Assembly: GCA_963762565.1 (NCBI GenBank)
Contig: CAVXLD010000012.1
Location: 480,001-544,000 of the forward strand
DNA: 64,000 bases
Reading direction: 5' to 3'
From: an uncultured Verrucomicrobiae bacterium
Lineage (GTDB): Bacteria > Verrucomicrobiota > Verrucomicrobiia > Chthoniobacterales > JAFAMB01
Positions within the stretch are counted from its first letter, which is position 1; each line of letters begins with the position of its first letter. Below, piece by piece: positions 2,357-44,235 of the stretch. A model generated the notes under the pieces. The model worked only from the letters and a program-made list of their open reading frames with translations. It was not told where the DNA came from and ran no database searches. The position numbers and the translations under genes were made by a program.

Positions 2357-2378
2357 CCCCGAAATTCTCCGGGGTCAA
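2357..2378 (+). repeat. 22-bp hairpin mini-element, consensus CCCCGAAATTCTCCGGGGTGAA (first copy)
   Basis: Full copies start at 2357, 4308, 12732, 20360, 20546, 22496, 23226, 26035, 26689, 31807, 36381, 37779, 41627 and 43938 (both strands). Partial copies at 14119 and 44730; nested composite at 57430. Confidence 0.95.
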
Positions 2379-2507
2379 ATTAACGCAGTCGCCTCGCCTT
2401 TCACCTTTCACCTTTCACCCTCTTCCCTTTGCGTCCGTTGCGTCCTCTGCGCGAGGTTTCTGCCTTCCGGGTTTTCGGGTCGCTGCGCGCCGCTCAGGGC
2501 GCCGATG

Positions 2508-2822
2508 CTACCTGGGCTCGAGATAGTAAACAATATGCCCGGTCGCCCAACTGTCTTGGCTATGCAACCGGATGGCCCACAAGCCGATACCTGCAACCAC
2601 GGCGACCAAGCATAACACTCGCGGAACCGCATGCGCCCGATACTCCGGCGACAGGTTGATCCAGCAGCCGATTACTCCGACGAGACAAAGCAAATCAAAA
2701 CCCATGGTCATAAGCTGCACCGTATGCATGGGATACTCGTGGCTCGGCGTAAATGCCCGCCACAGAAACGTCATGATCAAGATGAGCGAGAGAATCACAA
2801 AGAGATTTCTGGTGCTAAGCAT
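2508..2822 (-). CDS. Small membrane protein (about 3 TM), unknown function
   Basis: 104-aa ORF with three hydrophobic segments, lying between repeat blocks. Confidence 0.6.
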   Translation of the reverse strand: MLSTRNLFVILSLILIMTFLWRAFTPSHEYPMHTVQLMTMGFDLLCLVGVIGCWINLSPEYRAHAVPRVLCLVAVVAGIGLWAIRLHSQDSWATGHIVYYLEPR

Positions 2823-2950
2823 AGTTCAGTCGACACGTTAACCTCGGGACGGCAACCCGGTAAATAAGTGCAATTGCTTATAGTTCACGCGGTTTCACCT
2901 GTCTTTCCTTCGCGTCCTTTGCGCCCTTTGCGCGAGGCGTCTGCTATTTG

Positions 2951-3349
2951 CTATTTATCCTCTTCCTCCAGGATCGGTTTGATATCGATAATCGGTGTAC
3001 CGTTGATGGCTTCCAACGACTCAACCCTGATCCAGTGATCAGTTATGCTGACGATTTTGGTGCGATGAAGGCCAATCGGGTTAGGACGATCCGGAGAACG
3101 AGTTCCAAATACACCGCGCAAAGGGGTATGCGGATTATTACGAGGATGGGTTTTCAGAATGGTTCGGTCTGCTTGATGGAGCCACGTCAGAACCCAGATA
3201 TCCATTCCCGTTTTGAGACCATCAAGCGCTTCGATATAAGCCGGTCTGATTTCCAAACTAGCATGTGGTGCACCTTCATGGGCCTGACGCGGGGCCGAAG
3301 TTCGAGCCGTCAGATGCGAGTGAACACGGCCGATATGGGTGAGGTTCAT
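2951..3349 (-). CDS. tsaA: TsaA/TrmO (YaeB)-like SAM-binding protein
   Basis: GVFGTRSPDRPNPIGL and LEAINGTPIIDIKP motifs. Start reassigned to ATG 3349 because the upstream extension is repeat-derived. Confidence 0.85.
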   Translation of the reverse strand: MNLTHIGRVHSHLTARTSAPRQAHEGAPHASLEIRPAYIEALDGLKTGMDIWVLTWLHQADRTILKTHPRNNPHTPLRGVFGTRSPDRPNPIGLHRTKIVSITDHWIRVESLEAINGTPIIDIKPILEEEDK

Positions 3350-3576
3350 TACGCTTCCTCCAGGAACAATGCCTACGGCGCGAGGGACAAATAGCAAATC
3401 GCAAATAGCACATAGCAATCTACCGGCAGTTGGAGTCTGCTCCCGTCCTCCCCCAACAGCCGCCACCAGCCAAGCGCCAACGGCGCACTCAGTCCACTCC
3501 GTCAACTCAGTCCACTACGTCAACTCCCACCACCAATCACCAATCACCAATCACCTTTCACCTTTCACCTTCTCCC

Positions 3577-4125
3577 TCACCGGCACCCAGCCAGCATCGC
3601 GTAAACGATGACACCGGTAACCGACACATACAGCCAGACCGGAAACGTGAACCGCGCCAACCGCCGGTGAGCCGGAAACCGCCCTGTGAGCGACAAAAAG
3701 AACGTGATGAGAATCATCGGCAGAGCCACAACGGAAAGAGCAATGTGCGAGATGAGCAACGGAAAATAAACACCACGAACGAACCCTTGACCCTGAAAAT
3801 GCATGTCGCCGTGAAGCGCATGATTCGTGATGTAGGTCACGAGGAAAACCGTAGAAAAGATAAACGCGGTGAACATGGCGCCTCGATGCTCACTGATGCG
3901 TCTTGCCCGGATAAAAAAGTAGCCGGCAACCAAAGCAATCGACGAAAGAGCATTCAACAATGCGTTTAACGCGGGCAGAAAAAGGAGCTGAGTCCCGGCC
4001 ACATCAGTCGGCGCATGATAATAAACGAGCCAGCAAAGAAACAGACTGGCGAGAGCGCTGATCCCGATAATAGCGCCGATGACGCTGATTGGTGTCCGAG
4101 TGTTGTCGCTGGTGATCGTAGTCAT
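3577..4125 (-). CDS. DUF420 family membrane protein
   Basis: LPALNALLN, HRGAM, HRRLARFTFPVWLYVSVTGV motifs; start ATG 4125. Confidence 0.88.
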   Translation of the reverse strand: MTTITSDNTRTPISVIGAIIGISALASLFLCWLVYYHAPTDVAGTQLLFLPALNALLNALSSIALVAGYFFIRARRISEHRGAMFTAFIFSTVFLVTYITNHALHGDMHFQGQGFVRGVYFPLLISHIALSVVALPMILITFFLSLTGRFPAHRRLARFTFPVWLYVSVTGVIVYAMLAGCR

Positions 4126-4472
4126 TCCCCGAAAAAGAACACGAAACCAAATCTCACGCAAAGAACGCAAAGCCGCAAAGAAAAGACAGTAATAGCCGCG
4201 AAAGAGCACAAAGAACACAAAGAAAGCCTCGCGCAGAGGACGCAAAGGGCGCAGAGGGAGCGGAAGAACGTGAAAGGTGGAAAATCTCGAAAAAACACGA
4301 ACCGCAGCCCCGAAATTCTCCGAGGTGAAATGGACGCAGATAGGGTACGGAGGGGAGGGGAACCGCGTTTACGAGCGTGGGCTTGATGCCAGCGCGACAG
4401 CTACTCCTTGAACTTCTCGAACTCCTGCAACTCCTTGAACTCCCTTTTCTCTGCGCTTTTTGTGCCTTCGCA

Positions 4473-4504
4473 GCTTGCCGCGCCGTAGGCTCTGCGAAGG
4501 AGGG
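4473..4504 (+). repeat. 30-32 bp hairpin mini-element, consensus CCTGTCGCGCCGTAGGCTTGGCGAAGGCGGA (first copy)
   Basis: Related copies near 6721, 12837, 14153(-), 18845(-), 18885, 21580/21591, 21687, 23286, 24740, 27892(-), 36306, 36447 and 59525. Confidence 0.9.
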
Positions 4505-4508
4505 GCTA

Positions 4509-5570
4509 TTAAATCTTCCCCAGCGTTGGGACAAAGCGCATCTTTTGGAATTGATCAAAGAGCCGGAATAACATTTCCTCGGTATCGACCCATTCCAGGA
4601 AACCGTACCGCCGGCATTTGTTGGTGTCCGTCATAATATCGTACTCGATATTGAAAATGGCTTCGCCGAAAGGCCAGGAGACAGCTTGATCGAATGAATA
4701 ATCGAGTAAGCCATGTTGTTTAACGAGCCGTTGCCAGAGCGCGCCTTTGTCCGACATGAATAGAGCCAACGGGAGATGTTGCGGTGGCGCGTACTCCATT
4801 TTGAAATAGTTGGCCAGACGCGGCCAGAGATTACTCCAACGATTGAAATCGCCGTTAGTGATATTGAAAGCTTCCCCGTCACAACGATCATTGGTACCCG
4901 CCCATACAATGGCTTTCGCTAACAGCTCAGCATCGGTCATCTCCAATACGATCTCGTATGCCTTGGCCGTGCCCGGGAACCGGAAAGGTAACCCCATTTG
5001 TTTGCAGAGCACAGCGTACACCGCCAGAACAGTGGCCATGTTCATTGGGTTACCCACCGCGAACCCGCAGATGGAAGAAGGACGTAACGCTGACCAGGAC
5101 CAGGATTTACCAGCCGATCGAGTTTTAAGGTAATCCTCCTGATCATAATAAAAATTTGGCGGCATATGCCGCAGATCATCCTCCCGGGCGGGTGTCTTGT
5201 AAGGACCGAGGTGCGCGCCGTACCATTTGGCGCCTTCAAGAAGAACCACCTTTCGGAATTGGGTCGATGAACGTTCCACGGTCTCAACCAGGTTGATGAG
5301 CATCGCTAAGTTAGGTCCTACCTCATCGAACACGCTCTTCCCCCAATAGAGCGCGGAGTAGAAGACGTGAGTGACATCTCCGATATCTCTCAGTTTAGAT
5401 TCAACCGCGGACCGGTCACAAAGATCGACTGCGATATAGTTAGCGGATGTCTGAAATTCAGGGCTTCTCCGGGATAACCCGATCACTTCCCAATCACCGA
5501 GTGAGACCAGATGGTTGACAAGGGTGCGACCGGTAACGCCGAGCGCTCCGGCTACCAAGGCCTTCTTCAT
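4509..5570 (-). CDS. Atypical SDR oxidoreductase (PRISE / progesterone 5-beta-reductase-like)
   Basis: ALVAGALGVTG Rossmann motif, GAKWYGAHLGP, PPNFYYDQED. Confidence 0.9.
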   Translation of the reverse strand: MKKALVAGALGVTGRTLVNHLVSLGDWEVIGLSRRSPEFQTSANYIAVDLCDRSAVESKLRDIGDVTHVFYSALYWGKSVFDEVGPNLAMLINLVETVERSSTQFRKVVLLEGAKWYGAHLGPYKTPAREDDLRHMPPNFYYDQEDYLKTRSAGKSWSWSALRPSSICGFAVGNPMNMATVLAVYAVLCKQMGLPFRFPGTAKAYEIVLEMTDAELLAKAIVWAGTNDRCDGEAFNITNGDFNRWSNLWPRLANYFKMEYAPPQHLPLALFMSDKGALWQRLVKQHGLLDYSFDQAVSWPFGEAIFNIEYDIMTDTNKCRRYGFLEWVDTEEMLFRLFDQFQKMRFVPTLGKI

Positions 5571-5716
5571 GGAGAGAGAATCTCACGCAAAACCGCAAAG
5601 AAAAGACAACAACCGCAGATGGACGCAGATTTACACAGATAGGGTATGGGGGAGGAGAACCGGGTTTACGAGCCGACAGCCACTCCTTGAACTCCTTTTT
5701 TTTGCGCTTTTTGTGC

Positions 5717-5759
5717 CCTTGGCCGACGAAGCTAAAGGGGGAGGTGGGGCGAAGTCGGC
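5717..5759 (+). repeat. 42-bp long-loop variant of the hairpin mini-element (CCTTGGCCGACGAAGC-TAAAGGGGGAGRTGGG-GCGAAGTCGG)
   Basis: Other copies at 24811-24852 and 45422-45463, and a degenerate one at about 48422-48467. Confidence 0.85.
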
Positions 5760-5933
5760 TTTTCGCGGCTATTAGTTTTTTCCACCAATCACAATCACCT
5801 CTCGCCAATCACCTCCCACCTTTCACCTGGGCAACGATTTACAAGATTCACAGTATGTGTGGACGGCTTACCCCATCTTGTATTTTTAGGAGCACAGACT
5901 CCCGGAAACACAAACCGCACGATTTCCCCTAAA

Positions 5934-6464
5934 ATGCTGATGAGAAAAGAGCCGGCACCCCAAGTAGATCCGAGGGTGGTATGGTATAACCTCTGGGCTG
6001 ATACAGCGAATCATCTCATCTACCAGACGCTGGCGCTAAAGGCAGACGGAGACAGAAAACGATGGGAGATAGTCATCATCACGACTGCTTTCTCCTTTTC
6101 TATAATTACATTGATATTTTCGTTCGTTGGTCAGGAATGGTCCACGATAGTTACTCGGATCTCGGCCGCGATGACCGTCCTCTTATCCGGGTTGGGAGGC
6201 GTTCTGCAACTGAAAGAGGCCGCGAAGGAGCTCAAGGCGCATCGCGACAAACTATTTTCCCTTTCCTATCACTCCGAAAGGGTTTGGAACCTCGCCCGAG
6301 ATCGCTCCCAACAGGAGAACGCTAGCGCTGAGGCGGATGCAGCTGACAAGGAACGCTTAAGCATCCGCCAAGCAACGCCCTTGTGCAAAGTACCGGACGT
6401 CTTGGCTGAGACTTGCTTTCAGCGCGCGTCCAAAATTTTAAGCGACCGATATACCCACAAATAG
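5934..6464 (+). CDS. Two-TM helical membrane protein, SLATT-like architecture
   Basis: N-terminal helix, two adjacent TM segments, then AKELKAHRD and a helical tail. The family assignment is an inference. Confidence 0.6.
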   Translation: MLMRKEPAPQVDPRVVWYNLWADTANHLIYQTLALKADGDRKRWEIVIITTAFSFSIITLIFSFVGQEWSTIVTRISAAMTVLLSGLGGVLQLKEAAKELKAHRDKLFSLSYHSERVWNLARDRSQQENASAEADAADKERLSIRQATPLCKVPDVLAETCFQRASKILSDRYTHK

Positions 6465-6474
6465 GATACACACC

Positions 6475-6615
6475 ATGGTTGAAGACAAAAACAACCTGCC
6501 AAGCAAAGAAAAATCACACTGGGGAGGCGGAGGTGAAAAGGCATATGTCGACCCGCCAGAGTCAATCAACCCGCCCAACATGCCTGAGTCGGATCCGGAA
6601 CAGGGAGTGCAGTAA
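6475..6615 (+). CDS. 46-aa acidic, Pro-rich peptide
   Basis: MVEDKNNLPSKEKSHWGGGGEKAYVDPPESINPPNMPESDPEQGVQ. ATG lies 10 nt after the upstream stop, with AGGA overlapping that stop; below the ORF-track cutoff. Confidence 0.5.
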   Translation: MVEDKNNLPSKEKSHWGGGGEKAYVDPPESINPPNMPESDPEQGVQ

Positions 6616-6818
6616 AAGGGTGGCCACCTATCGATTCGCGGTCCATCTTTTATCTGCGTAAATCTGCGTCCATCTGCGGTTAAGTTTTGTATTCGTGTTA
6701 ATTCGTGTCCATTCGCTGCTATGTCCGCGCCGTAGGCTTGGCGAAGGCGGGGTCCCTTTATGCGTTCTTTGTGCTCTTTCGCGGCTATTCCTGTCTTCGA
6801 CCAATCACCAATCACCAA

Positions 6819-7889: not shown

Positions 7890-7910
7890 GCGAGCGCAAT
7901 TTAGCCGGAT

Positions 7911-7983
7911 TTACTTAAAGCATTAAATTTCTTTTTTGACTTCTCCACTTTCTTTGGCTTTTATTACTTAAAGCATTAAGTAA
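7911..7983. promoter_or_regulatory. Two putative LacI operator sites flanking a TTGACT -35 box
   Basis: TTACTTAAAGCATTAAATTT (7911-7930) and TTACTTAA-AGCA-TTAAGTAA (7964-7983, perfect 8-bp arms); TTGACT at 7936-7941. Confidence 0.7.
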
Positions 7984-8097
7984 CTCTGCCCGCAAAGGCT
8001 GCTAATCCCCCCAAGCCATGGACTTACGGCACCTCCGATGTTCTTCAATCCTAGCGCACGGCGCGCTTCGTCCTTCCGCCTTTGCCAACGCCTGGTT

Positions 8098-8214: not shown

Positions 8215-8266
8215 CAATCACCAATCACCACTCACTTCTCACTAACCAACCCCAAACCCCCTCCTT

Positions 8267-11224: not shown

Positions 11225-11260
11225 TTGACCTAATCCAGAGTGTGTAGTATTACCTACACA
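11225..11260 (+). promoter_or_regulatory. Sigma70-type promoter overlapped by a palindromic operator
   Basis: TTGACC (11225-30), 17-nt spacer, TATTAC (11248-53); inverted repeat TGTGTAG-n6-CTACACA (11241-11260). Confidence 0.65.
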
Positions 11261-12671: not shown

Positions 12672-12774
12672 CGAAAATGGACCGCGAATGGACGCGAATC
12701 GACACGAACACAGAGAAAAGATCAACCGCAGCCCCGAAATTCTCCGGGGTGAAATTTACTCAGATACGGGGACC

Positions 12775-13917: not shown

Positions 13918-14327
13918 ACGCTTAAACCCGCCTTTCTTCTGTTCAGCAAAAAACCTCCACAAACATCGTCTCGTGCCAGGGCTTGTCAATGATCCGCGGA
14001 GAGCCTCGCGCAGAGGGTGAAAGGTGAAATGGTGATTGGTGATTGGTGATTGGTGATTGAGGCAAACGGCATAAAGCGCAGAAAAGTCACAGACCCATCT
14101 GCGTAAATCCGCGTTGATTTCACCCCGGAGAACGTCCTTCGGCGCGACAGGCTCCGCCTCCGCCAAGCCTATGGCGCGACAGGTTTTGGCGGCTATTGGA
14201 AATTTGTTCCGACCGTCGGCCTCGTCCCGCCGCCGCGGGAAGGCAGCGCTCCACCAATCACCAATCACTAATCACTAATCACCAATCACCTCTCACCCTC
14301 CGCGCCCTTTGCGTCCTCTGCGCGAGG

Positions 14328-18777: not shown

Positions 18778-19128
18778 TGATTGTTGATTTCGTGGAGCGC
18801 TGCCTCGCTTGCGAGGCCGACGGTCGGAACAAATCTTTAATAGCCCCGCCTTCGCCAAGCCTACGGCGCGGCAAGCTGCAAAAACCTGTCGCGCCCTAGG
18901 CTTGGCGAAGGCGGAAGGCACAAAAAGCGCAAAAAAAATAAGTCAGAGCGAAGCCTTATGGAAGTGCGACCTGTCCGCCATAGCTGTGGGTCGATGTAGG
19001 CAGCGCTTTTTACCTTTCACTTTTCACTTTTCACCTCTCACCCGTCTTCCCTTTGCGTCCGTAGCGTCCTCTGCGCGAGGTTTTCTTTTGCGTTCTTTGT
19101 GCTCTTTTGCGGCTATTAAGGTTTTCCA

Positions 19129-19219
19129 CCAATCACCAATCGCCAATCACTAATCACTAATCACTAATCACTAATCACCGATCACCGATCACCGATCACC
19201 GATCACCGATCACCGATCA
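19129..19219. repeat. Heptamer tandem array, 13 units (3x CCAATCR, 4x CTAATCA, 6x CCGATCA)
   Basis: Read directly. Shorter arrays of the same family at about 3530, 14030, 14253, 19308, 20593 and many other gaps. Confidence 0.95.
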
Positions 19220-19343
19220 CCGCGGGCATGATAGACCGGACGACGTCCCCTGCGCGAGGTTTTCTTTTGCGTTCTTTGTGCTCTTTTGCGGCTATTAAGG
19301 TTTTCCACCAATCACCAATCACTAATCACCAATCACCGCGGGC

Positions 19344-20332: not shown

Positions 20333-20458
20333 AGCGAAGCCTAGTAGAGCCGCGTAGCGTTTACCCCGGAGCATTTCGGGGGTGAAATAATTATAGCCTA
20401 GGGTGAGTCCTCGAGCCCTAGGTAAACAGGGAAAAGAGTACCAGCGCTGTAAGCGCGG
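20333..20458 (+). repeat. REP-like family AGCC.CGTAGCGGTGAAAT..ATAGCCTAGGG..CCCTAGG...CAGCGCTGAAAGCGCG
   Basis: Copies at about 20333, 22276, 25845 and 37590; fragments near 31735, 36251 and 41477. Confidence 0.8.
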
Positions 20459-20667
20459 CAGACTCGGTGTCGGCGTGCTGGCGGTCGATCCCGCGTGTGC
20501 GGCCTAGCCATTGTTGCAGGGGTCGCGAGCCTTGTCTGCGTAAATTTCACCCCGGAGAATTTCGGGGCTGCGGTTGATGTTTTTCCCCAACGCCAATCAC
20601 CAATCACCAATCACTAATCACTAATCACTAATCACCCGTCCCCCCTCTGCGCGAGGTTCTGTTCCGA

Positions 20668-22263
20668 TCACTTCTTTTGCAACAGGCTGAGTTCAACCTC
20701 TCTCGATGGTATCGGCGGAAAAAGAAAGGCAATTGCCGGGAACCGTCCCGTGGGAAAGACAAGGGCGGGGAGAGAGTAGTGATGACTCCTTAAAAGCTTG
20801 TAACCTCGACTTTCGATCTCGCCAGATGTCGTACCAAACCATTTCGGCCCAATTTTACTGTCCCAAAACACTATTGTCCCTGCCGGCCCTTTCTCTAAAA
20901 CCGAAAGTAGCTTCTCTCGATTCGTTGCCGGAGGACTATCTTTTAGGTTCCGGTTAAGATCGATACACATCCGGCCGTTGCTCCAGATTAGACCGGGCAG
21001 CGACGAATGCTGCGTTTGTAGCCAGTTCGCCATATCATCGATCGCAACTGCGTCACGCGCCCAAACCATCGAGTCCATGTAATGAACACTCTGCAGAATG
21101 GAAAAAATGATGACTACCCACCCGGCGACTGCCGCAAACGGGCGCAAGCTCTTCACTGAAAAAATTGTGTGCCAACCTTGCAGGGTTAACACAGCAATAG
21201 CCGCAGCAACCGAAACCATGTAACGCGGAAATCCTGCTTCCCCAAAAAGCCCGTACTTAACAAAAACCGAGTGTAACAAAAACAATACCAAGAAAACGGA
21301 CGTGATTAGTATCCAAGAGAGGGAACGGAATCCTCGTACCAAACCGACAATGAAGGGAACGATTAAAATGACACCCGCAAACTCTTGGCTACGCTGCGCG
21401 TAACTAAGAAACGTACCATGCCCATACATATCGGTGTGCCAAGTAGCGGGCCAATTATGCAAGATAAAGAGCGAATCACCGGTTAAGAGCAAAGCAGCCA
21501 ACCACCAGAGTACGACCCCGCTGGCGAGGATAACGATCGATCCCAACCGACGAAGTATCCCTTGGAGCGCTGCCTCGCTCTTGTCCTCCGACTTGTCCGA
21601 CGAAGCCTTGGCGAAGTCGGAAGCTTTAGCGAAGGAGGATGCGAGACCGTCGTGGCGTTCCCCGTCCGCCAAACACCGAACGCCGACTTGTCCTCCGAAG
21701 CCTTGGCGAAGGAGGAACTCCAACCGCCAAACGTCAAACGCCACCCATAAACCCCAAAGAAGACAGACAAATACTCCTTCCGGCCGGGCGAGAGGAAGAA
21801 GCGATGCAACTAACATCCCCGATTTTACCCGACCGCTAATATGACACCGAAGCGCGATCACTAGAAGTAGAGCAAACAACGGCTCGGTGAACAGACTCGA
21901 GTAAAGTTCGAAGAATGTCTGTTGACCAAGGAGCAGCGGTATTACCAGCCAAGCGCGCGACAAGTCTAGATCAGAAGCCAGCCGATAAGTCTGCCAGGCA
22001 ACGGCCACGCTGATAGCCAGAGCAAAGAATCGCGCTGGGACAAAACCGAGCGCGGCCACCGGTGCAAAAAGCGTGGTAAACAACGGACGCCCCCAGACAT
22101 CAACAAAATAAAAATGATCAACCCAGGCCGTACGAGCCATCAAGAAATGGTAATCGACATCTTGTTCCGGTGACCCTGGGAAAAGAAAAATCAACAGAAC
22201 ACCGATGACCGCCATGAATACCACGGCAATCAGCGCACGCCGCGAATCATCGACTTGTTGCAT
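20668..22263 (-). CDS. Multi-pass membrane protein, GT-C glycosyltransferase-like, with a repeat-derived in-frame insertion of about 60 aa
   Basis: WGRPLFT, FTEPLF, LARPEG and FPRY motifs with many TMs; hydrophilic insert LLRQGFGGQ...SSFAKASDFAKASSDKSEDK. Confidence 0.75.
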   Translation of the reverse strand: MQQVDDSRRALIAVVFMAVIGVLLIFLFPGSPEQDVDYHFLMARTAWVDHFYFVDVWGRPLFTTLFAPVAALGFVPARFFALAISVAVAWQTYRLASDLDLSRAWLVIPLLLGQQTFFELYSSLFTEPLFALLLVIALRCHISGRVKSGMLVASLLPLARPEGVFVCLLWGLWVAFDVWRLEFLLRQGFGGQVGVRCLADGERHDGLASSFAKASDFAKASSDKSEDKSEAALQGILRRLGSIVILASGVVLWWLAALLLTGDSLFILHNWPATWHTDMYGHGTFLSYAQRSQEFAGVILIVPFIVGLVRGFRSLSWILITSVFLVLFLLHSVFVKYGLFGEAGFPRYMVSVAAAIAVLTLQGWHTIFSVKSLRPFAAVAGWVVIIFSILQSVHYMDSMVWARDAVAIDDMANWLQTQHSSLPGLIWSNGRMCIDLNRNLKDSPPATNREKLLSVLEKGPAGTIVFWDSKIGPKWFGTTSGEIESRGYKLLRSHHYSLPALVFPTGRFPAIAFLFPPIPSREVELSLLQKK

Positions 22264-22567
22264 ACGGACTGGAAGAGCGGAGCCTAGTAGAGGTGCGAAG
22301 CACTGGAAAGAATTTAGCCTAGGGTGAAGCCCTAGGTATTCGATTTAAAAAACGCCCGGCGCTGAAGGCGCGCAAGAAATGTTGTCCCAAAGAACCCTTT
22401 GTGATTTCCCACGTGTTCTTGCCTAGCGACATCTTCCCACCAATCACGAATCACCAATCACCTTTCGCGCTCTTCCCGCCCCTATCTGCTTAAATTTCAC
22501 CCCGGAGAATTTCGGGGCTGCGGTTAGTCTGTCTTTCTTCGGGTGCACCATTCCCCCTGAGCGGCCA

Positions 22568-23168: not shown

Positions 23169-23431
23169 ATAAGCGACTATTAGACAACCAAAAACCAATT
23201 GGGCGCTTCCTTCCCCAAAACCCATTTCACCCCGGAGAATTTCGGGGCTGCGGTTAGATCTGTCTTTCTTCGCTTCGATTCGTCGCCCGTCGCGCCGTAG
23301 GCTTTGCGGAGGCGGATTCATTCGCGGTCCGTCTTCAATCTGTCATTTGTCATTTGTCATCTGTCATACGCGTAGCGCCCTGCGGTTCGTGTTTTATTAG
23401 GCTTTTCGATTTAAGGTTATGATTGAGCCCA

Positions 23432-25742: not shown

Positions 25743-26208
25743 AAGTCAGACCTTAATGATCTCGCGCCAACACGGCAAAGACGAACCGCAGATGGACGCA
25801 CAGGGGGAGGGTGAAAGGTGATTGGTGAAAGGTGAAAGGTAAAAAGCGGAGCCTAATAAAGCCGCGTAGCGGTGAAATATTTATAGCCTAGGGTGAGTCT
25901 GCGAGCCCTAGGAAAGCATCCAAAAGACCGCCCAGCGCTGAAAGCGCGCAAGAATCGCATCCCGAAGACCCACGACTCGCAAGCTCAATCTAGGCTCTCC
26001 TGTAACAGACCCATCTGCGTAAATCTGCATAAATTTCGCCCCGGAGAATTTCGGGGCTGCGGTTGTTGTCTTCTCTTTGCGGCTTTGCGTCTTGGCGTGA
26101 GATTTTCTCTTCGTCTTTTTTTGCGTTCTTTGTGTTCTTTTGCGGCTATTTCACCTTTCGAGATCGGAGCGCTTCGGCTATTGGTTATTAGAGATTCGCG
26201 AAGCGATT

Positions 26209-26529: not shown

Positions 26530-26742
26530 CTGAGCCAGACTGCAGGTACCCCGCGATTCTTTTCCAGTTGTACCAAGTTTCCAAAGGCGGAGCGCTTACA
26601 AGTCACCTATTGGACTTCCTACGCCTCGCAAGCTCACTCCCGCGGCCGTGGAAAGGCACCGCTCCAAGGGCCCCCTATCTGCGTCCATTTCACCCCGGAG
26701 AATTTCGGGGCTGCGGTTAGTGTTTTATTTTGCGCGTCAACT

Positions 26743-31706: not shown

Positions 31707-32038
31707 ATCACCAATCACGTTTCCTCGGCCACCGCTAGGGACTATGCGTCGCACCTCCTTTAGGCTCCGCTCTACCGCCAATCCATCTGCGTAAATCTGC
31801 CTCCATTTTACCCCGGAGAATTTCGGGGCTGCGGTTGAATTGCCTTCCCTTTGCGCCTTTGCGTGAGATTTTATTCGTGTCCATTCGCGGTCCGTTTTTG
31901 CGTTTCTTCGCGGCTGTTAAGGTTTTCCACCAATCACTAATCACCACTCACCAATCACGCTCTTCCTCTCTTTGCGTGAGAATCCTTCTGGCTTCAGCGA
32001 TCACCTCGGGCTAAAACTTCATAGCACCCCCGCCGGCT

Positions 32039-33085: not shown

Positions 33086-33486
33086 CCGCGTTTTGAGCCC
33101 TTAGAAACATCTCGACCCGTGGAGAAGTCCTGACATTTGAGAAGAAAAACCGGAGAATAAATTCACCACAAAGACACAGAGAGCACAAAGGTCAAGGCCA
33201 AATACCCCCATCACTTTTCGCCAATCATCCTTCACCTTTGCCCCCTTTTGCCTCTTTGCGTGAGAATTAGTCTTCGCCTTTTTTTTGCCTTTTGCTCTCT
33301 TTCTGCGGCTATTAAGGTCTTCCACCAATCACTTCTCACCAATTACCCTTCGACGCGCCAAATGTTTGCTCAGAGCGGGCCTCCCACCGTATGCATTTCC
33401 GTTCCCTATCTGCGAAATCTGCGTTCATCTGCGGTTGAAGTTTTTTTCTTTTGCTTCTATTCGCGGTCCGTTTTCGAATTATTGAC

Positions 33487-36251: not shown

Positions 36252-36478
36252 CACCGCTTTGCGGCTCTACTAGGCTTCGCATATCTAAGGCGGTCGGCCT
36301 CGCTACCTGTCGCGCCGTAGGCTTGGCGAAGGCGGAAGCGAGGCAGCGCTCCACAAAGGGCCTACCCCATCTGCGTAAATTTCACCCCGGAGAATTTCGG
36401 GGCTGCGTTTATCTGCGGTTGAATTTGTATTCGCGTTTATTCGTGGCCTGTCGCGCCGTAGGCCTGGCGGAGGCGGAT

Positions 36479-37432: not shown

Positions 37433-38604
37433 AACAGAGTATCCACGCGGAGCAAAGCGCTGACAAACAGACGGAAGCCGCAAGAGACACAAAAATGAAC
37501 CGCGAATGCACACGAATTGACACGAAAACAGAAGACTAAAGCGAACCACAGATAGACGCAGATTTACGCAGATAGGGGCCGCTAAAAGAAGCGAAGCCTA
37601 GTAAAGCCGCGAAGCGGTGGAATATCTATAGCTGCTAGGGTGAGTCTGCGAGCCCTAGGAAAGCATCCAAAAAACCGCCCAGCGCTGAAAGCGCGCAAGA
37701 ACCGCATCTCAAAGACCACGACTTGCAAGCTCAATCTAGGCTCCTGTAACAGACCCATCAGCGTAAATCTGCGTCCATTTTACCCCGAAGAATTTCGGGG
37801 CTGCGGTTCGTCTTTCTTCGCGGCTATTAAGCTTTTCCACTTGGCGTGAATTCGTGTCCATTCGCAACCTGGCGCGCCGTAGCGAGATAAGGTTGGCTGG
37901 CTGCAGCGAGCGCGAACTTCCTCTGGCTGTTTCAATGCTTCCAGATCAAACCGCTTAAAATCATGCGGCTGATCCCCGTGCACTTCTGCCGGCACCGGGT
38001 GCCGCAGGTGCGGTCTCAGCGCGATCAAGACCATTCCGAATCCATCCATGGTTTATCCTTCAGTTTGGTTCCTCTCCGCATTCTAGTTCCCTCACCTCGC
38101 AATGGTGGGTGCTTTCCAGAATGCCCAGGGGTCCCGATTTCCGGAAACCAAGCTGGACAGCTTTGGTCGTTTATTTAGAGATCACGCTAGCTCTCTTTAT
38201 AGACCCACCTTCCCGGATACCGTTCGAAGATCCCGCTGAGCAGCCACCGAATGCGTGAGATTTTCATTCGCGTCTATTCGTGTCCATTCGCGGTTCGTTT
38301 TTGTGCCTTTTGCGGCTATTGAATTCATCTGCGTAAATCTGCGTCCATCTGCGGTTGTTGTCTTTTCTTTGTGGCTTTGTGGCTTTGTGTCTTTGTGTGA
38401 GATTCTGGTTTTAACGCCCAAGGGGTGGCCACCCCGTTCGGCCTCGCAAGCAAGGCAGCGCTCCACGGGCGTCGCGGCTTCGCGGCGTTTGAGGTCTTCC
38501 ACCAATCACCAATCACCAATCACGTTCTTCCGCTTTGCGTCTTTGAGATAGACATCAAACCCGAGGGTCGCTAGACCAGTACCAGGCTGCCACCGAGCGC
38601 TCAG

Positions 38605-40269
38605 ATGAGCCCCGGCATCGAAATGAAGAAAGAAGAGCAGGCGCACAATTGGCGCATTATTTACACTCGAAGATCGATTATTTGTCGTTCCTGGATCAGT
38701 TGCCTCTCATTGGGAGCCGCTTGGTCGCTTCTCACATTGGGACTTTTTACTCAACCTGCCTATTGCCAACGGCAAGAATTCATCGGACGCGGAAACAGCT
38801 CTGTCAGCTGGGGAGTAGTCGAAGTTCAGAATGTTGATAAAGGCTCAGCAGAAGGTCGAATTGGTGACCGGATTGTTGTAAAAATAAAAAACTTCGACGG
38901 GTGGCTCGTCGAACAAATTGGCGACGGTAACTACCCGAAATCGACGACACCTGGCGAGGGTTTAGTTAACCTGATTAAAGCCGGCCTATTTAAATCAGCG
39001 CTCGATGCCAGGCATGAAGCCGGCGCTGAGGCCCACCAGTTGGGTGGAAACCTTGAAGATTGGTTCAAAAATGATAACCCGGCGACTGGACCCAATGCGA
39101 ACGATCGGGCAACCCGAATTAAGACCTTCAAAGACAAGTACGCCGTCCTGCTCCAGCAACTGCAAAAGGATTATAAAGAAAATCCTTATCAAGGAATTCG
39201 GGAGGCATACAACTATATCCAAACTGTGTTTGATCAGCAGGTAGCCGGGCTCCGCCTGAAAATTAACGATTATACGCTCGATAACATTGCTCCGTCGAGC
39301 TCCCGCATCAATGCAGAAGAATCAAGCGGCGAAGATTCTTACCATGATGTTCCCTTTGATCTGGATCCGCAGTTGAACGATGACGTCTGGCAGAAACTAC
39401 GTTCCCGCGTCTTTCCCTGGGGAACAGTTAATGTGACGCTGGTTACAAAGCTGACCGACCGGGAGCACGATTTTCCGACTGCCGTTGTTTCTGCTGACAA
39501 CCCTCAAGGAAACGAGCTCATTGCCCCTAAACACTTCAAGCTCTACACCGTTGACCCAGTTACACTTTGGGCGGCACTGGGGGTGGTGCTCTTTCTGGTT
39601 GTTTTATTTATATCCGTAGCGTTCCGCACTGATCTGCTCCGGGATCCAACCAGAAAATTGCGACCGGACAAAAATTTTCCATTTAGCCTTTCCCGGGTAC
39701 AAATGGCGTTCTGGCTTTTCATTATCGTATCGAGCTTCCTCTTCCTGTTTGTGGCGACCCAAAAAGTAACGGTGCTTAATGTTACTTGTCTCTGGCTCAT
39801 CGGCATTGGGTCCGGAACCGCGTTAGGAGCTGCTATCATCACTCCGTCCAGCGACCCAAACAGTACGAACCAGGCCGCTGAGAACAAAAAAATCCAAGCG
39901 GAAGTGGCCAACGAGAGGTCGCGACTGCGAGACCTGGAAAACAAAGCAAAACAAGGCGCCCTTGACCCGGCGCGACAACAGGCCCTAAACGATCTCCGTC
40001 AGAAAGACCTCCCGAGAGAATACACCGGCTTCTTCTCGCTACGACAAATGCTGATGGATCTAATTAGCGACGACGTTGAAGGGGTCGCCATCTATCGATT
40101 CCAGATGCTGGCTTGGACCATTGCCCTAGGGTTTGTCTTCGTGTTCAAAGTTGCCACCGAGCGGGCGATACCAACGTTCGACCTCGCCACACTCGGTCTT
40201 CTTGGAATCAGCTCCGGAACCTACCTCGGCTTCAAGTTACGGAACGACGATGGTACCGGACGAAAATAG
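38605..40269 (+). CDS. Large membrane protein of unknown function (soluble N-domain plus duplicated TM module)
   Basis: SLSRVQMAFW...LWLIGIGSGT and YRFQMLAWT...LGLLGISSGTYLGFK form an internal repeat; start uncertain. Confidence 0.8.
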   Translation: MSPGIEMKKEEQAHNWRIIYTRRSIICRSWISCLSLGAAWSLLTLGLFTQPAYCQRQEFIGRGNSSVSWGVVEVQNVDKGSAEGRIGDRIVVKIKNFDGWLVEQIGDGNYPKSTTPGEGLVNLIKAGLFKSALDARHEAGAEAHQLGGNLEDWFKNDNPATGPNANDRATRIKTFKDKYAVLLQQLQKDYKENPYQGIREAYNYIQTVFDQQVAGLRLKINDYTLDNIAPSSSRINAEESSGEDSYHDVPFDLDPQLNDDVWQKLRSRVFPWGTVNVTLVTKLTDREHDFPTAVVSADNPQGNELIAPKHFKLYTVDPVTLWAALGVVLFLVVLFISVAFRTDLLRDPTRKLRPDKNFPFSLSRVQMAFWLFIIVSSFLFLFVATQKVTVLNVTCLWLIGIGSGTALGAAIITPSSDPNSTNQAAENKKIQAEVANERSRLRDLENKAKQGALDPARQQALNDLRQKDLPREYTGFFSLRQMLMDLISDDVEGVAIYRFQMLAWTIALGFVFVFKVATERAIPTFDLATLGLLGISSGTYLGFKLRNDDGTGRK

Positions 40270-40305
40270 TCCACCTAAACACTCACAACAACTCCCACCC
40301 AAATA

Positions 40306-40764
40306 ATGTCTACTTCAAATCTCCGCCTGACCGCTTTACGTCTTCCTGTTCGGCGGCTTCTATCAGCGGTACCGGCACTCGTCCTCGTATTAACTGCGTG
40401 CAGCATCATCGCGCCGTACGACCAAGCAGCATACGAACACGCCACGAGTACCAAGGCAGAGGCACTCCTGTTAATGGACCGAGCGACGACATCGTACAGC
40501 CAGAATATGGACAAAATCGATGCGGTTATTTTAGATCTCAACAAAGCATACGAGTACGACAAGGGTCGGGTCAGAAACCAGGACACCGTGGGGATGTGGA
40601 CGAGATTGCTAAGCCCGGACAAACTCTTTGGCGCCTTTATCCGGACATGGAAAAGTAAAGGCCAACTTCCTCCCGGCTACATCGAATTGAAAAAGAAAGA
40701 TGTAGAAGGCGCCTTCGATCAGATCATTCAGCTTGAACAAGGAAAACAAAAAACAGGGACCTAG
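40306..40764 (+). CDS. Lipoprotein of unknown function
   Basis: Lipobox LTAC; helical mature domain ending AFDQIIQLEQGK. Confidence 0.8.
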   Translation: MSTSNLRLTALRLPVRRLLSAVPALVLVLTACSIIAPYDQAAYEHATSTKAEALLLMDRATTSYSQNMDKIDAVILDLNKAYEYDKGRVRNQDTVGMWTRLLSPDKLFGAFIRTWKSKGQLPPGYIELKKKDVEGAFDQIIQLEQGKQKTGT

Positions 40765-41055
40765 TGTCCTGTCCCATAAATAACGTGGCTTTCGTTGCGA
40801 TCAAAATGGGCCGCCGGCAAGGCGCGAGGAGGGCGCATATCTTGATCGATACGTAACCGACGAGCAACGCGGCCGCCGGCCCATTTTCATCGCAACCCTC
40901 CGGGCCGTGGCCAGTTGGCTGTTTTTCTGCGTTGCTTGCTCCTTACGTATCAATTTAGATATGCTCGTCGTTAGTGCCAGTGCGGCTCGCACCGCCTTGA
41001 AAAACAGCCAACTGACCGACGGCGAAAGCCACGCTATTTATGGGACAGGACACTA
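40762..41055. mobile_element. 290-bp MITE with 31-bp terminal inverted repeats and TA target duplication
   Basis: TA-GTGTCCTGTCCCATAAATAACGTGGCTTTCG ... CGAAAGCCACGCTATTTATGGGACAGGACAC-TA (1 mismatch); no transposase inside. Confidence 0.9.
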
Positions 41056-41067
41056 ATCAAACTTCTT

Positions 41068-41403
41068 ATGCCGACCTTTAATACCGACAATTTTGTCCAG
41101 GCCGTTCTCGCGGACGTGAGCAACCTCGCCGCCACGCTGTTTAAGAACTATGTAGGACAGGCCGAAACCGATGCCCGAGCTTTTATCCAAGCCTCCAAAG
41201 ATACCATCGCTAGCGCCGCTTCACTCTATCAGCAGGGCCAAATCGACCAAGACGAGCTCGAAGATATAATCAACGACCAGAAAGCCTTAGCCGAAATGCA
41301 CGCCCTAAAAGACACCGGGCTAGCCAGCGCCGCGATCGACACGTTCGTCGACGGAGTGATCCAGATCATGATCAATGCCGCCGTTGCCGCCTTGAAGATC
41401 TAA
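41068..41403 (+). CDS. Small acidic helical protein, unknown function
   Basis: 111-aa ORF; would lie 11 nt after the lipoprotein stop if the MITE were removed. Confidence 0.75.
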   Translation: MPTFNTDNFVQAVLADVSNLAATLFKNYVGQAETDARAFIQASKDTIASAASLYQQGQIDQDELEDIINDQKALAEMHALKDTGLASAAIDTFVDGVIQIMINAAVAALKI

Positions 41404-41786
41404 ATATTGCCCGTTCACGAGATTCCGCAGGGGCATCCTTTCTTTTGCGTCTTTTCTTGACCTACAATTGGTTCCAGTGCTTCGCACCTCTACTAGGCTG
41501 CGCGTCTAGTTGAGCGCTTCGCGCAGTTATCGGCCTCGCAAGCGAGGCAGCCCCTCCACGGGCGTCCGTCGGACAAGTCTCACCTCTACCAGGCTCCGAT
41601 TCTCGACCAAACCCATCTGCGTTAATTTCACCCCGGAGAATTTCGGGGCTGCGGTTGTTGTCTTCTCTCTGAGCCTTTCACCAATCACCAATCACGAATC
41701 ACCTCTCACCCTCTGCGTCCTTTACGCGAGGTTTTATTTGTCATCTGTCATCTGTCATGCGCTTCGCTCGGCTATTCGCGAAGCGC

Positions 41787-43733
41787 CTATTCCGGCCCGA
41801 AGGCGATGCCGTAGGATTGATTCCGGAGCGGAATCCCTTTAATCACCGAGCCGGTAGCGATATCGATCACCCACGCGGAGGTAGCACGTAAGTCGGTAGC
41901 CCACAGCTCGCTACCATCGTGCGTGATCGCTAGCGAACCTGGGGCTTGCCCGACAGGAATCATCTCCACAAATTTTTGCGTGGTTAGGTCGACTTCGAAA
42001 ATCCCCGCGGTACCGCTATCGGTAGCGAACACTTTCGTGCCATCGGGCGTAACCGCGATCCCCCCGGTTACCGGCTGGGTGGGGGGACTGGATGGGAGAT
42101 CCACGGCATGCGTGATTTTGTGGGTTGCAGTCGAGATCGTATACAGCGTATCGCTGAATCCTCCTATTACATAGATCGCTTTGCCATCCGCCGAAAGGGT
42201 GAGCGCCATCGGATAGCGAATGCGCGTGGCGCTTGTGACCTGACGCGTGCTGGTATCGATTCCGACGATCCAACAAATCGCGTTCCCAAAATCAGGCTGG
42301 GGATTGTTCACGGCCACGTACACGGTTTTTCCGTCCGGCGCGACGGCGATGAAAGAGGGATATCCCTGGTATTGGTTCGGAATCACAATCGTCTTTCTCT
42401 TGAACGTCTCGGCATCGACTACCGTTACCGAGTTCGAGAACGAGTTAGCCACATAGACGGTCGAGCTGTCCGGTGAAACCACGACACTCACGGGCTCGCT
42501 CCCCACCGGAACGCTATAAACAACCTTTTTCGAAGCGGTATCCACTGCGGCCAAAGCTCCCGACCCGAAATCGGTCACATACGCGCGTTTTCCGTCCGGG
42601 CTGACCGCCACGCCCCCGTACTCGAGGAAGAGCTGGCTGCCGTAGGTAATGGCTCCCACCGGCAAGTTGGCGGCTACACCTGTGCTATCGAGCGCTACTA
42701 AGTTGGACGTACCGGAGCTTGGACTCAGCAGCGTGCTCCCGTCCGGGCTGATCGCCATCCCGCCAACCGACGAAATCGAATCGATCAGCGCCTCCGTCTT
42801 ACGGGTCGCGACGTTCATGACCGCGATTTGCGGCCCATTCACTGGCACATAGGCGGTGCTCGAATCCGGCGAAAACAGAATCGCACCGGGCGATTGAACT
42901 GCCGGCAGCGTGATTGTGTTGGTGTCGAACGTGCTGGTTGAAATCACGACGATGATCGAAGTGACGCCGCGATACAGCGGGAATTCTCCCAGCCAAGCTT
43001 GCGACCCATCAGGAGTAATCTTGATAAAGCCCGCAGAAACATTAGAGGGTAGCGGAATGGTTTCAACGACCACGTAGTTCGCTGTGCTTACGACCTGAAC
43101 GCTTTCCTGCGGATTTCCAGTATTACCGACGGATGCGATATAGAGATACTTACCATCCGGCGTCACTGCCTGGCTGGCCGCCGATATAGAGGGAATCGTT
43201 TTCGTTACGCTAAGCGAGCCCGCGTTTATCACGTAGAGACCAACGGAACCGATGACGTACAACTTCGTTCCATCAGGACTCAGTGTCATAGCATCTACCG
43301 AATAATCGTGAATCGCGAGCTTGCCGGTCACCGTGTTGGAGGCAGTATCAATTGCAACGATATGGTAAAGGTTAGCCGCATCGAAAGACTCTGCATACAA
43401 CCTGGTACCGTCGGGACTAATAGCCTCCCACTGCACGGAAAACCCGACCTTAACCTTGGCAAGAGTTAATCCAGTAGTCGAGTTCAGCACCGACACCGAT
43501 GCTGAATTCGTGTTTGAAACATACACCTTGTTGCCGTCAGGCGAATAGACGGCTTGAAAAGCGTTTTGCCCAACGGTCCACTGCGCCTTTTGCTTATTCG
43601 TAGTGGTTTGAAAAACGTCGACAACCGAGGCGTTGTTGCAGCAATCCGAAATGTAGGCCACCTCCGCCGAAACCGGCGACGTGGCGGAAAAGAGCAGAGC
43701 GGCATAGCCGACGAAATACGTTCGCAATGACAT
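41787..43733 (-). CDS. Secreted YncE/YVTN repeat beta-propeller protein
   Basis: Signal peptide from ATG 43733; many SPDG..(V/L)YV repeats. Confidence 0.9.
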   Translation of the reverse strand: MSLRTYFVGYAALLFSATSPVSAEVAYISDCCNNASVVDVFQTTTNKQKAQWTVGQNAFQAVYSPDGNKVYVSNTNSASVSVLNSTTGLTLAKVKVGFSVQWEAISPDGTRLYAESFDAANLYHIVAIDTASNTVTGKLAIHDYSVDAMTLSPDGTKLYVIGSVGLYVINAGSLSVTKTIPSISAASQAVTPDGKYLYIASVGNTGNPQESVQVVSTANYVVVETIPLPSNVSAGFIKITPDGSQAWLGEFPLYRGVTSIIVVISTSTFDTNTITLPAVQSPGAILFSPDSSTAYVPVNGPQIAVMNVATRKTEALIDSISSVGGMAISPDGSTLLSPSSGTSNLVALDSTGVAANLPVGAITYGSQLFLEYGGVAVSPDGKRAYVTDFGSGALAAVDTASKKVVYSVPVGSEPVSVVVSPDSSTVYVANSFSNSVTVVDAETFKRKTIVIPNQYQGYPSFIAVAPDGKTVYVAVNNPQPDFGNAICWIVGIDTSTRQVTSATRIRYPMALTLSADGKAIYVIGGFSDTLYTISTATHKITHAVDLPSSPPTQPVTGGIAVTPDGTKVFATDSGTAGIFEVDLTTQKFVEMIPVGQAPGSLAITHDGSELWATDLRATSAWVIDIATGSVIKGIPLRNQSYGIAFGPE

Positions 43734-44235
43734 ACGGAACCTCCAGGGGAGGACGAGCATATCAAAGACTTGGTTCTTAGGGTAGAACGATTTGTTCGAC
43801 GCCAAGGCAGAAGGGTCACGCCTTTTGGGGCGTGTTGCCCAATTGGATGTCACACAACAAGACCCCAAGGGACACGAAGAGAACAAAATCTCACGCAAAG
43901 CCGCAAAGACGCCAAGCAGAGACAGATTTAACCACAGCCCCGAAATTCTCCGGGGTGAAATGAACACGGATTTACGCAGATGGATTTTCGAAAGACACCA
44001 GATTTACAAACATAGCAGAGTCTATCTGTGTCAATCTGTGTTCATCTGCGGTTCAGTCTGATTTGCTTTGTGTTTTCGTGCCTTCGTGTGAGGCCCTATT
44101 TGCGTTTATTCGTGTGCATTCGCGGTCCCTTTTTTTGCGTTCCTTGCGCTCTTTTGCGGCTATTCAGACTTAACGCCTCCGACCCACCCCATCTGCGTAT
44201 ATCTGTGTTCATCTGCGGTTCGTCTGTCTTCGTTT

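Follow-up and report, generated by a model that had tools for sequence, protein, structure and literature searches.

The 64-kb window analyzed here, the whole stretch from position 480,001 to 544,000 of contig CAVXLD010000012.1 of an uncultured Verrucomicrobiae bacterium, carries in its intergenic DNA dispersed copies of a 22-nt sequence, CCCCGAAATTCTCCGGGGTGAA, which we term 22a and which is best read as a tiny insertion module, akin to the small dispersed repeats (SDRs) of cyanobacteria, in a new phylum. 22a has fixed ends and a fixed orientation, occupies a preferred junction at which no target bases are duplicated or lost, nests within itself and is conserved across species. We lean, without great confidence, towards a reading of 22a as one of the "very small mobile repeats", a discrete insertion module that is non-autonomous.

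Searching the window for 22a at up to three mismatches returned 14 matches, the same 14 copies that an earlier note on this DNA had listed, whereas none was obtained in any of 100 dinucleotide-preserving shuffles. Eight copies are perfect, four carry one mismatch and two carry two; together they differ at 8 of 308 positions, five of which fall in tail positions 19-20, and by our own count from the flank listing 22a is less diverged than the adjoining host unit. The earlier list was complete for full copies and omitted three partial or nested ones (14119, 44730 and 57430-57496). The module is built of a weak 5-bp hairpin stem, CCCCG/CGGGG, whose loop of 8 nt is as conserved as the stem itself, and of a tail of 4 nt, mostly TGAA or TAAA. 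All 14 copies lie outside our rough gene map, which covers ~75% of the window, and by our own reading their orientation to genes is inconsistent, nine facing a gene start and five a gene end. The strand split of 10 minus to 4 plus is not significant (p = 0.18), empty host arrays lean the same way (7:3), and GC skew is uniformly negative in the window.

The host of 22a is an array of decamers, (ATNNACGCAG)n, with AACCGCAG as its terminal unit, and such arrays often form both arms of palindromic intergenic composites of 100-300 bp. Thirteen of the 14 window copies belong to this host-repeat family, and 13 of the 14 are flanked as CAG^...^AT (^ marks the junction): the flanks read AACCGCAG^...^AT in 11 copies, AAACGCAG^...^AT, after the second unit of the array, at 36381, and AACCACAG^...^AT at 43938. 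Either GCAG^ or ACAG^ stands directly 5' of 13 copies, the exception being TCAC^ at 20360, and the left flank often extends further, as GAAGACA..AACCGCAG. The CCCC end adjoins CAG in all 13 array-borne copies. At CAG^AT sites neither boundary of 22a can be slid, and there is no direct repeat around it, hence no target duplication, which bears out the earlier description of an exact 22-nt unit.

The empty form of the junction, AACCGCAGATGGACGCAGAT, is also well represented, with 10 matches in the window at three or fewer mismatches (0.01 expected); the six empty sites named in the earlier note were all recovered within ~10 nt of the positions given there (1212, 5611, 6662, 33417, 38337 and 59411). 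The target named in the earlier note, CAG^AT, accommodates 13 of the 14 copies and proved too loose as a definition, because sites ending in CCGCAG^ are filled in 11 of 26 cases (15 empty) and those ending in ACGCAG^ in only 1 of 23 (22 empty; Fisher p = 0.0024). Filled and empty junctions can face each other within a single composite, the half-filled inverted pairs of the window being 25784/26035, 37544/37779 and 43938/44034. The coordinates of all these features are collected in Table 1.

Table 1. Positions in the window of 22a copies, partial and nested forms, and empty sites (^, junction).
Feature	Position	Strand	Remarks
22a copy	2357..2378	+	Tail TCAA; in AACCGCAG^ATTAACGCAG
22a copy	4308..4329	+	Stem mismatch G16A; in AACCGCAG^ATGGACGCAGAT
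22a copy	12732..12753	+	Perfect
22a copy, context C	20360..20381	-	Two mismatches, tail TAAA; in TTTCAC^CGCTACGCGG, unrelated repeat family
22a copy	20546..20567	-	Perfect
22a copy	22496..22517	-	Perfect
22a copy	23226..23247	-	Perfect; right flank ATGGGT without a further CGCAG unit
22a copy	26035..26056	-	Tail CGAA; filled arm of inverted pair, other arm 25784(+) empty
22a copy	26689..26710	-	Perfect
22a copy	31807..31828	-	Tail TAAA
22a copy	36381..36402	-	Perfect; after the second array unit (AACCGCAGATAAACGCAG^)
22a copy	37779..37800	-	Two mismatches; filled arm of inverted pair, other arm 37544(+) empty
22a copy	41627..41648	-	Perfect
22a copy	43938..43959	+	Perfect, after AACCACAG; empty inverted array at 44034(-)
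Partial 22a	14119..14131	-	3' half TCTCCGGGGTGAA, normal right flank ATCAACGCGGATTTACGCAGAT; 5' half replaced by another module
Partial 22a	44730..44742	-	3' half CCTCCGGGGTGAA, normal right flank ATGAACACGGATTTACGCAGAT
Triple-nested 22a, 67 nt	57430..57496	+	Flanks CAG^ and ^ATGGAC; alignment A2
Outer 22a of triple-nested form	57430-57437 + 57482-57496		
22-nt sibling CCCCGAAAGCT/TTCGGGGGAAC in triple-nested form	57438-57448 + 57471-57481		
Third 22-mer CCCCGAAAACTTCCGGGGTAAC in triple-nested form	57449-57470		Reverse-oriented
Empty host site	1212..1231	-	AACCGCAG^ATGAACGCAGAT
Empty host site	5611..5630	+	
Empty host site	6662..6681	-	
Empty host site	25784..25803	+	Inverted partner of filled 26035
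Empty host site	33417..33436	-	
Empty host site	37544..37563	+	Inverted partner of filled 37779
Empty host site	38337..38356	-	
Empty host site	44034..44053	-	Inverted partner of filled 43938
Empty host site	44201..44220	-	
Empty host site	59411..59430	-	
Empty context C site	25864..25878	+	GCGTAGCG^GTGAAAT, other repeat family
Empty context C site	37609..37623	+	GCGAAGCG^GTGGAAT

The same unit recurs in other Verrucomicrobiota. Scanning 185,579 species-representative genomes, a collection that does not include the source genome, with the 18-nt core of 22a as query returned 52 loci, 18 of which derive from four Verrucomicrobiota metagenome-assembled genomes (MAGs): 14 from JAFAIO01, two from JAFAZK01 and one each from JAFAHI01 and JBEKYR01, with 28 full 22-mer copies in all. 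The remaining 34 loci are unrelated, their flanks being unrelated or the tail absent; among the unrelated loci are 20 matches with unrelated flanks and 12 loci without any 22-mer match, and ~17 chance matches to an 18-mer were expected. CAG stands directly 5' of all 28 MAG copies, which share one orientation throughout, with the CCCC end beside CAG; the following base is A in 26 of the 28 and the following dinucleotide AT in 20, and 26 lie in the same host-repeat family as in the window. JAFAIO01 and the window organism are related fairly distantly: the only syntenic genes, encoding a GH31 glycosidase and a major facilitator superfamily (MFS) transporter, share 71-73% DNA and 72-83% protein identity, and 22a and its host junction are the same in both genomes despite this ~72% gene identity. 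The synteny, which involves locus L011, spans no 22a site and is uninformative for presence or absence. Filled inverted pairs 185-260 bp apart occur at 5 of the 14 JAFAIO01 loci, and the pair in L011 folds as a long hairpin (-92.7 kcal/mol, z = -12.6); two further loci, L036 (10001/10344) and L026 (10001/10217), hold half-filled pairs, which brings these, with the window, to three genomes. Searched against plasmids and phages, the 62-nt filled site gave no match.

The 22-nt boundaries are retained outside the decamer arrays. The copy at 20360, which the earlier note had assigned to a different repeat family, does sit in one (context C): it corresponds to a 22-column gap in all six aligned paralogs (alignment A1; window 25838, 37585 and 22268, and three in locus L007), with a 1-nt slide ambiguity and an empty junction at ~25871, and context C is filled again in L007 at 2767. 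A further context (B) is a 9-mer array, in which 22a lies between ATTACACAG^ and ^ATTACGCAGATT in loci L006, L027, L028 and L042 and of which empty versions were found in L036, while in L013, from a fourth MAG, the copy is flanked by GCAG^ and ^AG. 22a also hosts its own kind. Exact 22-nt nesting steps after CCCCGAA^A in its own loop lead from 22 to 44 to 67 nt (alignment A2): a 22-nt sibling, CCCCGAAAGCTTTCGGGGGAAC, occupies this position in L031, where the outer copy lies in context A (AACCGCAG^AT), and likewise in the context C copy of L007, and in the triple-nested form of the window the sibling itself holds the third 22-mer, after CCCCCGAA^A. This 67-nt form folds at -24.8 kcal/mol (z = -4.6).

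Presence and absence of 22a could be compared at orthologous positions in L023 (JAFAIO01) and L036 (JAFAHI01), whose collinearity extends beyond 9 kb and whose sequences are 84-87% identical. Downstream of the same ABC-transporter gene, L036 reads AACCGCAG, 22a, ATGAACACGCAGATTAACGCAGATAA, where L023 reads AACCGCAG^ATGGACGCAGATTAACGCAGATAA, with a gap of exactly 22 columns (alignment A6; in the longer alignment A3 MAFFT misplaced this gap, and the narrower A6 resolved its position). The earlier note had proposed looking for differences of this kind between sister genomes, and this is one clean 22-nt case. The right arms of the same palindrome are empty in both loci (alignment A4). In the next intergenic region, L023 holds a filled pair and L036 none, and both arms differ together (alignment A5). 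Lone 22-nt indels thus exist side by side with the gain or loss of a whole array-plus-22a block.

Two other features of these loci were recorded. Between L036 10100-10290 and L023 6080-6190 the outer arms of the palindrome are conserved and the centers unrelated, that of L036 being a nested inverted pair, ~170 bp, of context B arrays; and the L036 ABC-transporter reading frame runs through repeat modules to stop at the TGA in the 22a tail.

The earlier note had named, as what would speak against mobility, descent of all copies from one pre-filled larger repeat by duplication. The window copies do not follow that pattern: in no pair among the 14 does ungapped flank homology exceed 20 bp to the left and right alike, the typical lengths being 8 bp (left) and 10-12 bp (right), and a pair with a longer match in one flank lacks one in the other, left and right flanks assorting independently. 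Several observations nevertheless weigh against mobility of the unit itself. Copies 26035 and 37779 have at least 38 bp of right flank in common and were co-duplicated, and the seven context B copies are copies of a pre-filled block, because they have extended flanks in common. The lone clean orthologous difference is a single case, and the differences in the second intergenic region are composite, 33 nt in one arm and, in the other, ~63 nt flanked by GCGGTT direct repeats, which indicates that array-plus-22a blocks are also gained or lost as wholes. The siblings 22b and 22c were never found on their own in the ~300 kb of window and loci, so nesting could reflect local growth of a palindrome rather than insertion. 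The hairpin described in the earlier note, a CCCCG/CGGGG stem with a 4-nt tail, is present and is weak, with a stability no greater than that of shuffled sequence: as single-stranded DNA (ssDNA), 22a forms a 5-6-bp stem at -5.2 kcal/mol (z = -1.2), and 21 of 200 shuffles do equally well or better. Among the window and MAG copies two stem changes disrupt pairing, and compensation is seen in no case. Finally, insertion and precise excision are indistinguishable here, and neither polarity nor a sign of current activity is apparent.

An alternative that we hold to be unlikely, though it is the strongest competitor, is that 22a is a passive, optional module. It would have entered the arrays a few times, perhaps by replication template switching at microhomologies, and would then have spread as the 100-300-bp composites, resembling MITEs (miniature inverted-repeat transposable elements) or REPINs, were duplicated and reshuffled, with fill state swapped by gene conversion between arrays or arms. 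Its appeal lies in the confinement of 13 of 14 window and 26 of 28 MAG copies to one host-repeat family, in the frequent extension of the left flank (GAAGACA..AACCGCAG) and the long common flanks of context B copies, in the filled inverted pairs of 5 of 14 JAFAIO01 loci, one with z = -12.6, and in the composite indels of the second intergenic region, where the arms differ together; the context C target GTGAAAT, moreover, matches 22a's own tail plus flank and looks like microhomology. Passive spread does not readily account for the same 22-nt boundaries in at least four unrelated contexts, including context C, which has no flank homology, and the loop insertions, nor for the lone clean orthologous indel, the half-filled pairs and the independent assortment of left and right flanks. 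The 8-12 bp of homology available in the flanks would, furthermore, be short for conversion of the RecA type.

The closest precedent for 22a appears to be the SDRs of the Nostocaceae, and SDR5 within HIP1 in particular, a comparison made by description only. Elhai and colleagues are said to have described in 2008 (Genome Res 18:1484) the Nostocaceae families SDR1-8, which reportedly span 21-27 nt and show hairpin potential and nesting. Of three later papers, one gives the length of SDR5 as 21 nt and links it to HIP1; another places its insertion between nucleotides 3 and 4 of HIP1, GCGATCGC, a precision that directed cutting at HIP1 could, in its view, partly explain; and a third reports that SDR-like repeats were not found outside the Nostocaceae. 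22a shares with SDRs its size class (22 nt, against 21 nt for SDR5), its many near-identical dispersed non-coding copies, its precise insertion at a fixed position of another iterated sequence with no target duplication, and presence/absence at orthologous positions, in the one clean case of L036 (filled) and L023 (empty). Both also inhabit genomes with short tandem heptamer-type repeats. Unlike SDRs, 22a is found in Verrucomicrobiota, its host is a decamer array rather than an 8-bp palindrome, and it combines exact 22-nt self-nesting with conservation across species. We found no literature on Verrucomicrobia equivalents or on nested hairpin insertions without target duplication. The earlier note's description of 22a as far smaller than usual MITEs or REPINs is overstated, given the precedent of the small cyanobacterial SDRs.

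Several small insertion modules occur here, and among them 22a is the most frequent and the cleanest. The window is otherwise an ordinary bacterial chromosome of ~54% G+C, with genes that include an RND efflux pump, transporters, glycosidases and a Ser/Thr kinase, separated by long intergenic regions that consist almost wholly of short modules in variable order: CCAATCA heptamers, CTTTGCG octamers, ATCTGCGNNN decamers, CACCTTT and GGCTATT repeats, a GCCTCGC/GCGAGGC hairpin, a 32-34-nt CGCGCCGTAGGC...GGCGG module, and others. The 32-34-nt module (core CGCGCCGTAGGCTTGGCGAAGGCGG) has 12 window copies, among them 36304-36335, 12834, 18846, 18880 and 27891. At 36304 it lies precisely in the loop of a GCCTCGC^AAGCGAGGC hairpin, which is empty at four places in the window and 25 in window and loci together, and it occurs also within AATAGCC^GCAAAAA and TGTGCC^TTTTGCGG. 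In L007 (8809-8840) it occupies ACGCAG^ATTTACGCAG, a junction used by 22a as well (ACGCAG^AT), and beside a 22a copy in the same locus a 42-nt module splits ATGGAC^GCAG. Exact-flank scans for filled and empty sites (10+10 and 9+9 nt) returned mostly self or chance matches, and only cases checked by eye or by alignment are used here.

The data show that 22a enters DNA as an exact unit, in one orientation and without target duplication. Its landing site is a G^A junction, for the most part the CCGCAG^AT with which the ATNNACGCAG arrays of this clade of Verrucomicrobiota end on their outer side; a resident copy can also take up 22a or its 22-nt siblings in its loop, after CCCCGAA^A, yielding the 44- and 67-nt forms. 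A sequence-specific enzyme acting in trans may recognize both element and target, cutting and rejoining ssDNA with no base lost or gained. The known chemistry that would fit best is that of an HUH-type tyrosine transesterase, with cleavage of the target after ...CAG^ and of the element's 3' end after ...TGAA^. The earlier note had gone as far as assigning 22a to HUH Y1 substrates, an assignment that we could not sustain; movement of 22a by an HUH enzyme is a tentative proposal, and we rather doubt it. An enzyme of this group, such as a REP-associated tyrosine transposase (RAYT; REP, repetitive extragenic palindromic sequence), is plausible but unsupported, given the weak hairpin, the missing GTAG tag, the unflanked Y1-like gene and the lack of a transposase near the 28 MAG copies.

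The only Y1_Tnp-like gene seen in the window (51059-51866, minus strand) is split by a frameshift into open reading frames (ORFs) 51588-51866 and 51059-51613. Its translations contain NHYHL, an HUH-like motif, and YIHLNP; it scores 23.9 bits against a cutoff of 23 for Pfam PF01797 and weakly matches the NCBIfam model of REP-associated tyrosine transposases. No 22a lies within ~5 kb of it, the nearest full copy being 43938 and the nearest nested one 57430. A second, truncated Y1-like fragment (62475-62567, minus strand; 77% identical over 31 aa) is likewise not flanked by 22a, and a motif, TATAGACGCGACCCC, stands upstream of both, at ~51890 and ~62650. The two pieces of the Y1-like gene had no tblastn match in the MAG loci and no relatives in the PDB, and no informative inverted repeat surrounds the gene. 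A transposase flanked by 22a, which the earlier note had proposed looking for, did not emerge either: none was found at E <= 1e-6 among the 94 ORFs within 1.5 kb of the 28 MAG copies, and since the MAG loci are the DNA fetched around 22a, any gene flanked by exact-core copies should have been captured. No Rep/helicase gene of the Y2 HUH type was seen among the scanned window ORFs or the 94 MAG ORFs. A frameshifted, threshold-scoring Y1_Tnp-like gene without flanking 22a thus counts against HUH-mediated movement, together with these null searches and with the structure of the element itself, which has a single hairpin, no GTAG/CGTC tag and a strand bias, 10:4, short of significance.

22a lacks features that define the other candidate families and shares further ones with them. 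Like REP and REPIN sequences, 22a is short, intergenic, present in high copy number, conserved in a clade, endowed with hairpin potential and presumably moved in trans, and its system includes inverted doublets able to form long hairpins (5 of 14 JAFAIO01 loci; L011, z = -12.6); the inverted pairs of the window are mostly half-filled. REP and REPIN families, as described, carry a GTAG/CGTC tag and stems of 8-9 bp or more. 22a has neither tag, its ends being CCCC... and ...TGAA/TAAA, and its stem is 5-6 bp; it sits inside another repeat at a fixed junction, as REPs do not, and the Y1_Tnp-like gene of the window, a likeness to REP/RAYT systems, differs in not being flanked by 22a. IS200/IS605 insertion sequences and their palindrome-associated derivatives leave no target duplication when they insert 3' of a specific short sequence; they act by ssDNA hairpin chemistry, have a cleavage motif of their own at the 3' end, and need two different subterminal hairpins and at least 100 bp of length. 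22a is similar in that it, too, is inserted without target duplication 3' of a fixed sequence of four or five nucleotides, and dissimilar in its single hairpin in 22 nt and in the geometry of its presumed cleavage, at the foot of the hairpin and 4 nt 3' of it. Of an orientation bias tied to the direction of replication it shows no more than the 10:4 lean (p = 0.18). Elements of the IS91 family and Helitrons insert seamlessly at a short specific site and have a small GC hairpin a few nucleotides from the 3' end. 22a resembles such rolling-circle elements in both respects, and three partial 22a copies keep only the 3' half; it differs in being complete at 22 nt, and in every partial copy the break falls within the loop, not at varying 5' positions. 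Among elements of other kinds, MITEs and bacterial interspersed mosaic elements (BIMEs) find a parallel in the intergenic mosaics of short, variably combined modules and in the palindromic composites of 100-300 bp. MITEs, which measure at least ~100 bp, are bounded by terminal inverted repeats and duplicate their target, unlike 22a with its 22 nt, no duplication and ends that are not inverted repeats beyond the 5-bp stem. BIME motifs are juxtaposed, whereas 22a is inserted into another repeat at fixed nucleotides.

22a might instead be mobile by other means. A site-specific nuclease could cut the array junction, with hairpin DNA then captured by ligation or repair, or the agent could be an IS110-type recombinase or a reverse-transcriptase-based writer; we regard this group of mechanisms as improbable. 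Occupation of ACGCAG^AT by both 22a and the 32-nt module, two unrelated sequences, suggests that the decisive property belongs to the target junction and not to the ends of one element, and the array units themselves end in GCAG^. The proposal, in one of the later SDR papers, of directed HIP1 cutting as part of the explanation for SDR5 insertion runs along the same lines. A gene for a putative restriction endonuclease of the Uma2 family (PF05685, E = 2e-35) lies at L006 2203-2763(+), ~1.3 kb from a 22a copy. It is the sole nuclease-like match among the 94 ORFs near copies, and such a single case does not amount to an association. No candidate enzyme is linked to 22a by the tests made here; the fixed orientation of 22a, in addition, suggests that both the element and the target are recognized.

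The junction shared by 22a and the 32-nt module and the GCAG^ ends of the array units do leave room for a junction-centered mechanism. We entertain as unlikely that 22a, the 10-nt units ending in GCAG^ and the 32-42-nt modules are all products of one nick-and-join system that writes intergenic DNA module by module. Such units would be the smallest transposable ones known. The origin or retention of this system would be independent of the SDR and heptamer-repeat system of cyanobacteria, and a comparison of the two phyla could expose a shared enzyme.

Least probable among the readings considered is that 22a is a functional cis-element, a binding or recognition site of a conserved host protein (for chromosome organization, methylation, uptake or similar) kept by selection rather than by parasitic spread. 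The identity of 22a in genomes whose genes are ~72% identical, with a loop conserved like the stem, fits recognition by a conserved protein, and 22a is strictly intergenic and less diverged than its host unit; selection, however, leaves the seamless arrival of a 22-nt block and its self-nesting unexplained, and no consistent position or orientation to genes (nine toward a start, five toward an end), no Rfam family and no T-run was found. Function and mobility can, in any case, coexist. Rfam at the gathering threshold and ARAGORN returned no RNA family and no tRNA, respectively, in the window, and 22a is accordingly not a known RNA element. An intrinsic terminator was ruled out for want of a T-run, an uptake-signal-like sequence was rejected because such signals spread by substitution and not by block insertion, and an assembly artefact was rejected on the presence of 22a in five independent assemblies.

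Elements of this size can neither encode anything nor carry two transposon ends, and the description of the cyanobacterial SDRs in 2008 raised the question of how they are excised and inserted seamlessly. A second, unrelated lineage now offers a clean target (CCGCAG^AT), exact self-nesting, identity across species and at least one orthologous presence/absence difference, which makes a comparative question tractable: whether a gene family tracks 22a across Verrucomicrobiota, and whether that family is shared with the Nostocaceae. With a coding fraction of roughly 75%, about a quarter of the sequence of this genome can be built from nested short modules.

Further observations concern the mosaics and the genes next to them. 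Long pure tandem arrays, (GGCTATT)n of ~17 units and runs of CCAATCA/CTAATCA/CCGATCA heptamers (window 59650-59765 and 19100-19230), resemble the short tandem heptamer repeats of cyanobacteria. A 531-aa membrane-protein ORF without a Pfam family (20668-22263, minus strand) contains intergenic repeat modules in frame (GGAGCGCTGCCTCGC...) at 21556-21650, and an 87-nt piece of this stretch is 97% identical to L036 and 83% to L023. Genes can be found inside mosaics as well: a DUF1330 gene (window 44236-44691, minus strand) and a 161-nt fragment of it (61489-61649) are embedded in them, as are three DUF1330 stretches in the 11-kb locus L031 (3535-3816, 7815-7949 and 10255-10593), with 65-96% amino acid identity to the window copy. 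Adjoining the broken Y1 transposase-like gene is a PF00144 gene for a serine hydrolase of the beta-lactamase fold (52052-53250, minus strand), which appears as two overlapping ORFs (52456-53250 and 52052-52582) and may be frameshifted. Finally, terminal inverted repeats of ~30 bp (TGTCCTGTCCCATAAATA...) bound an element of ~290 bp at window 40765-41060, which over its first 64 nt shares 97% identity with L028 and thus looks like a MITE common to the window organism and a related MAG.

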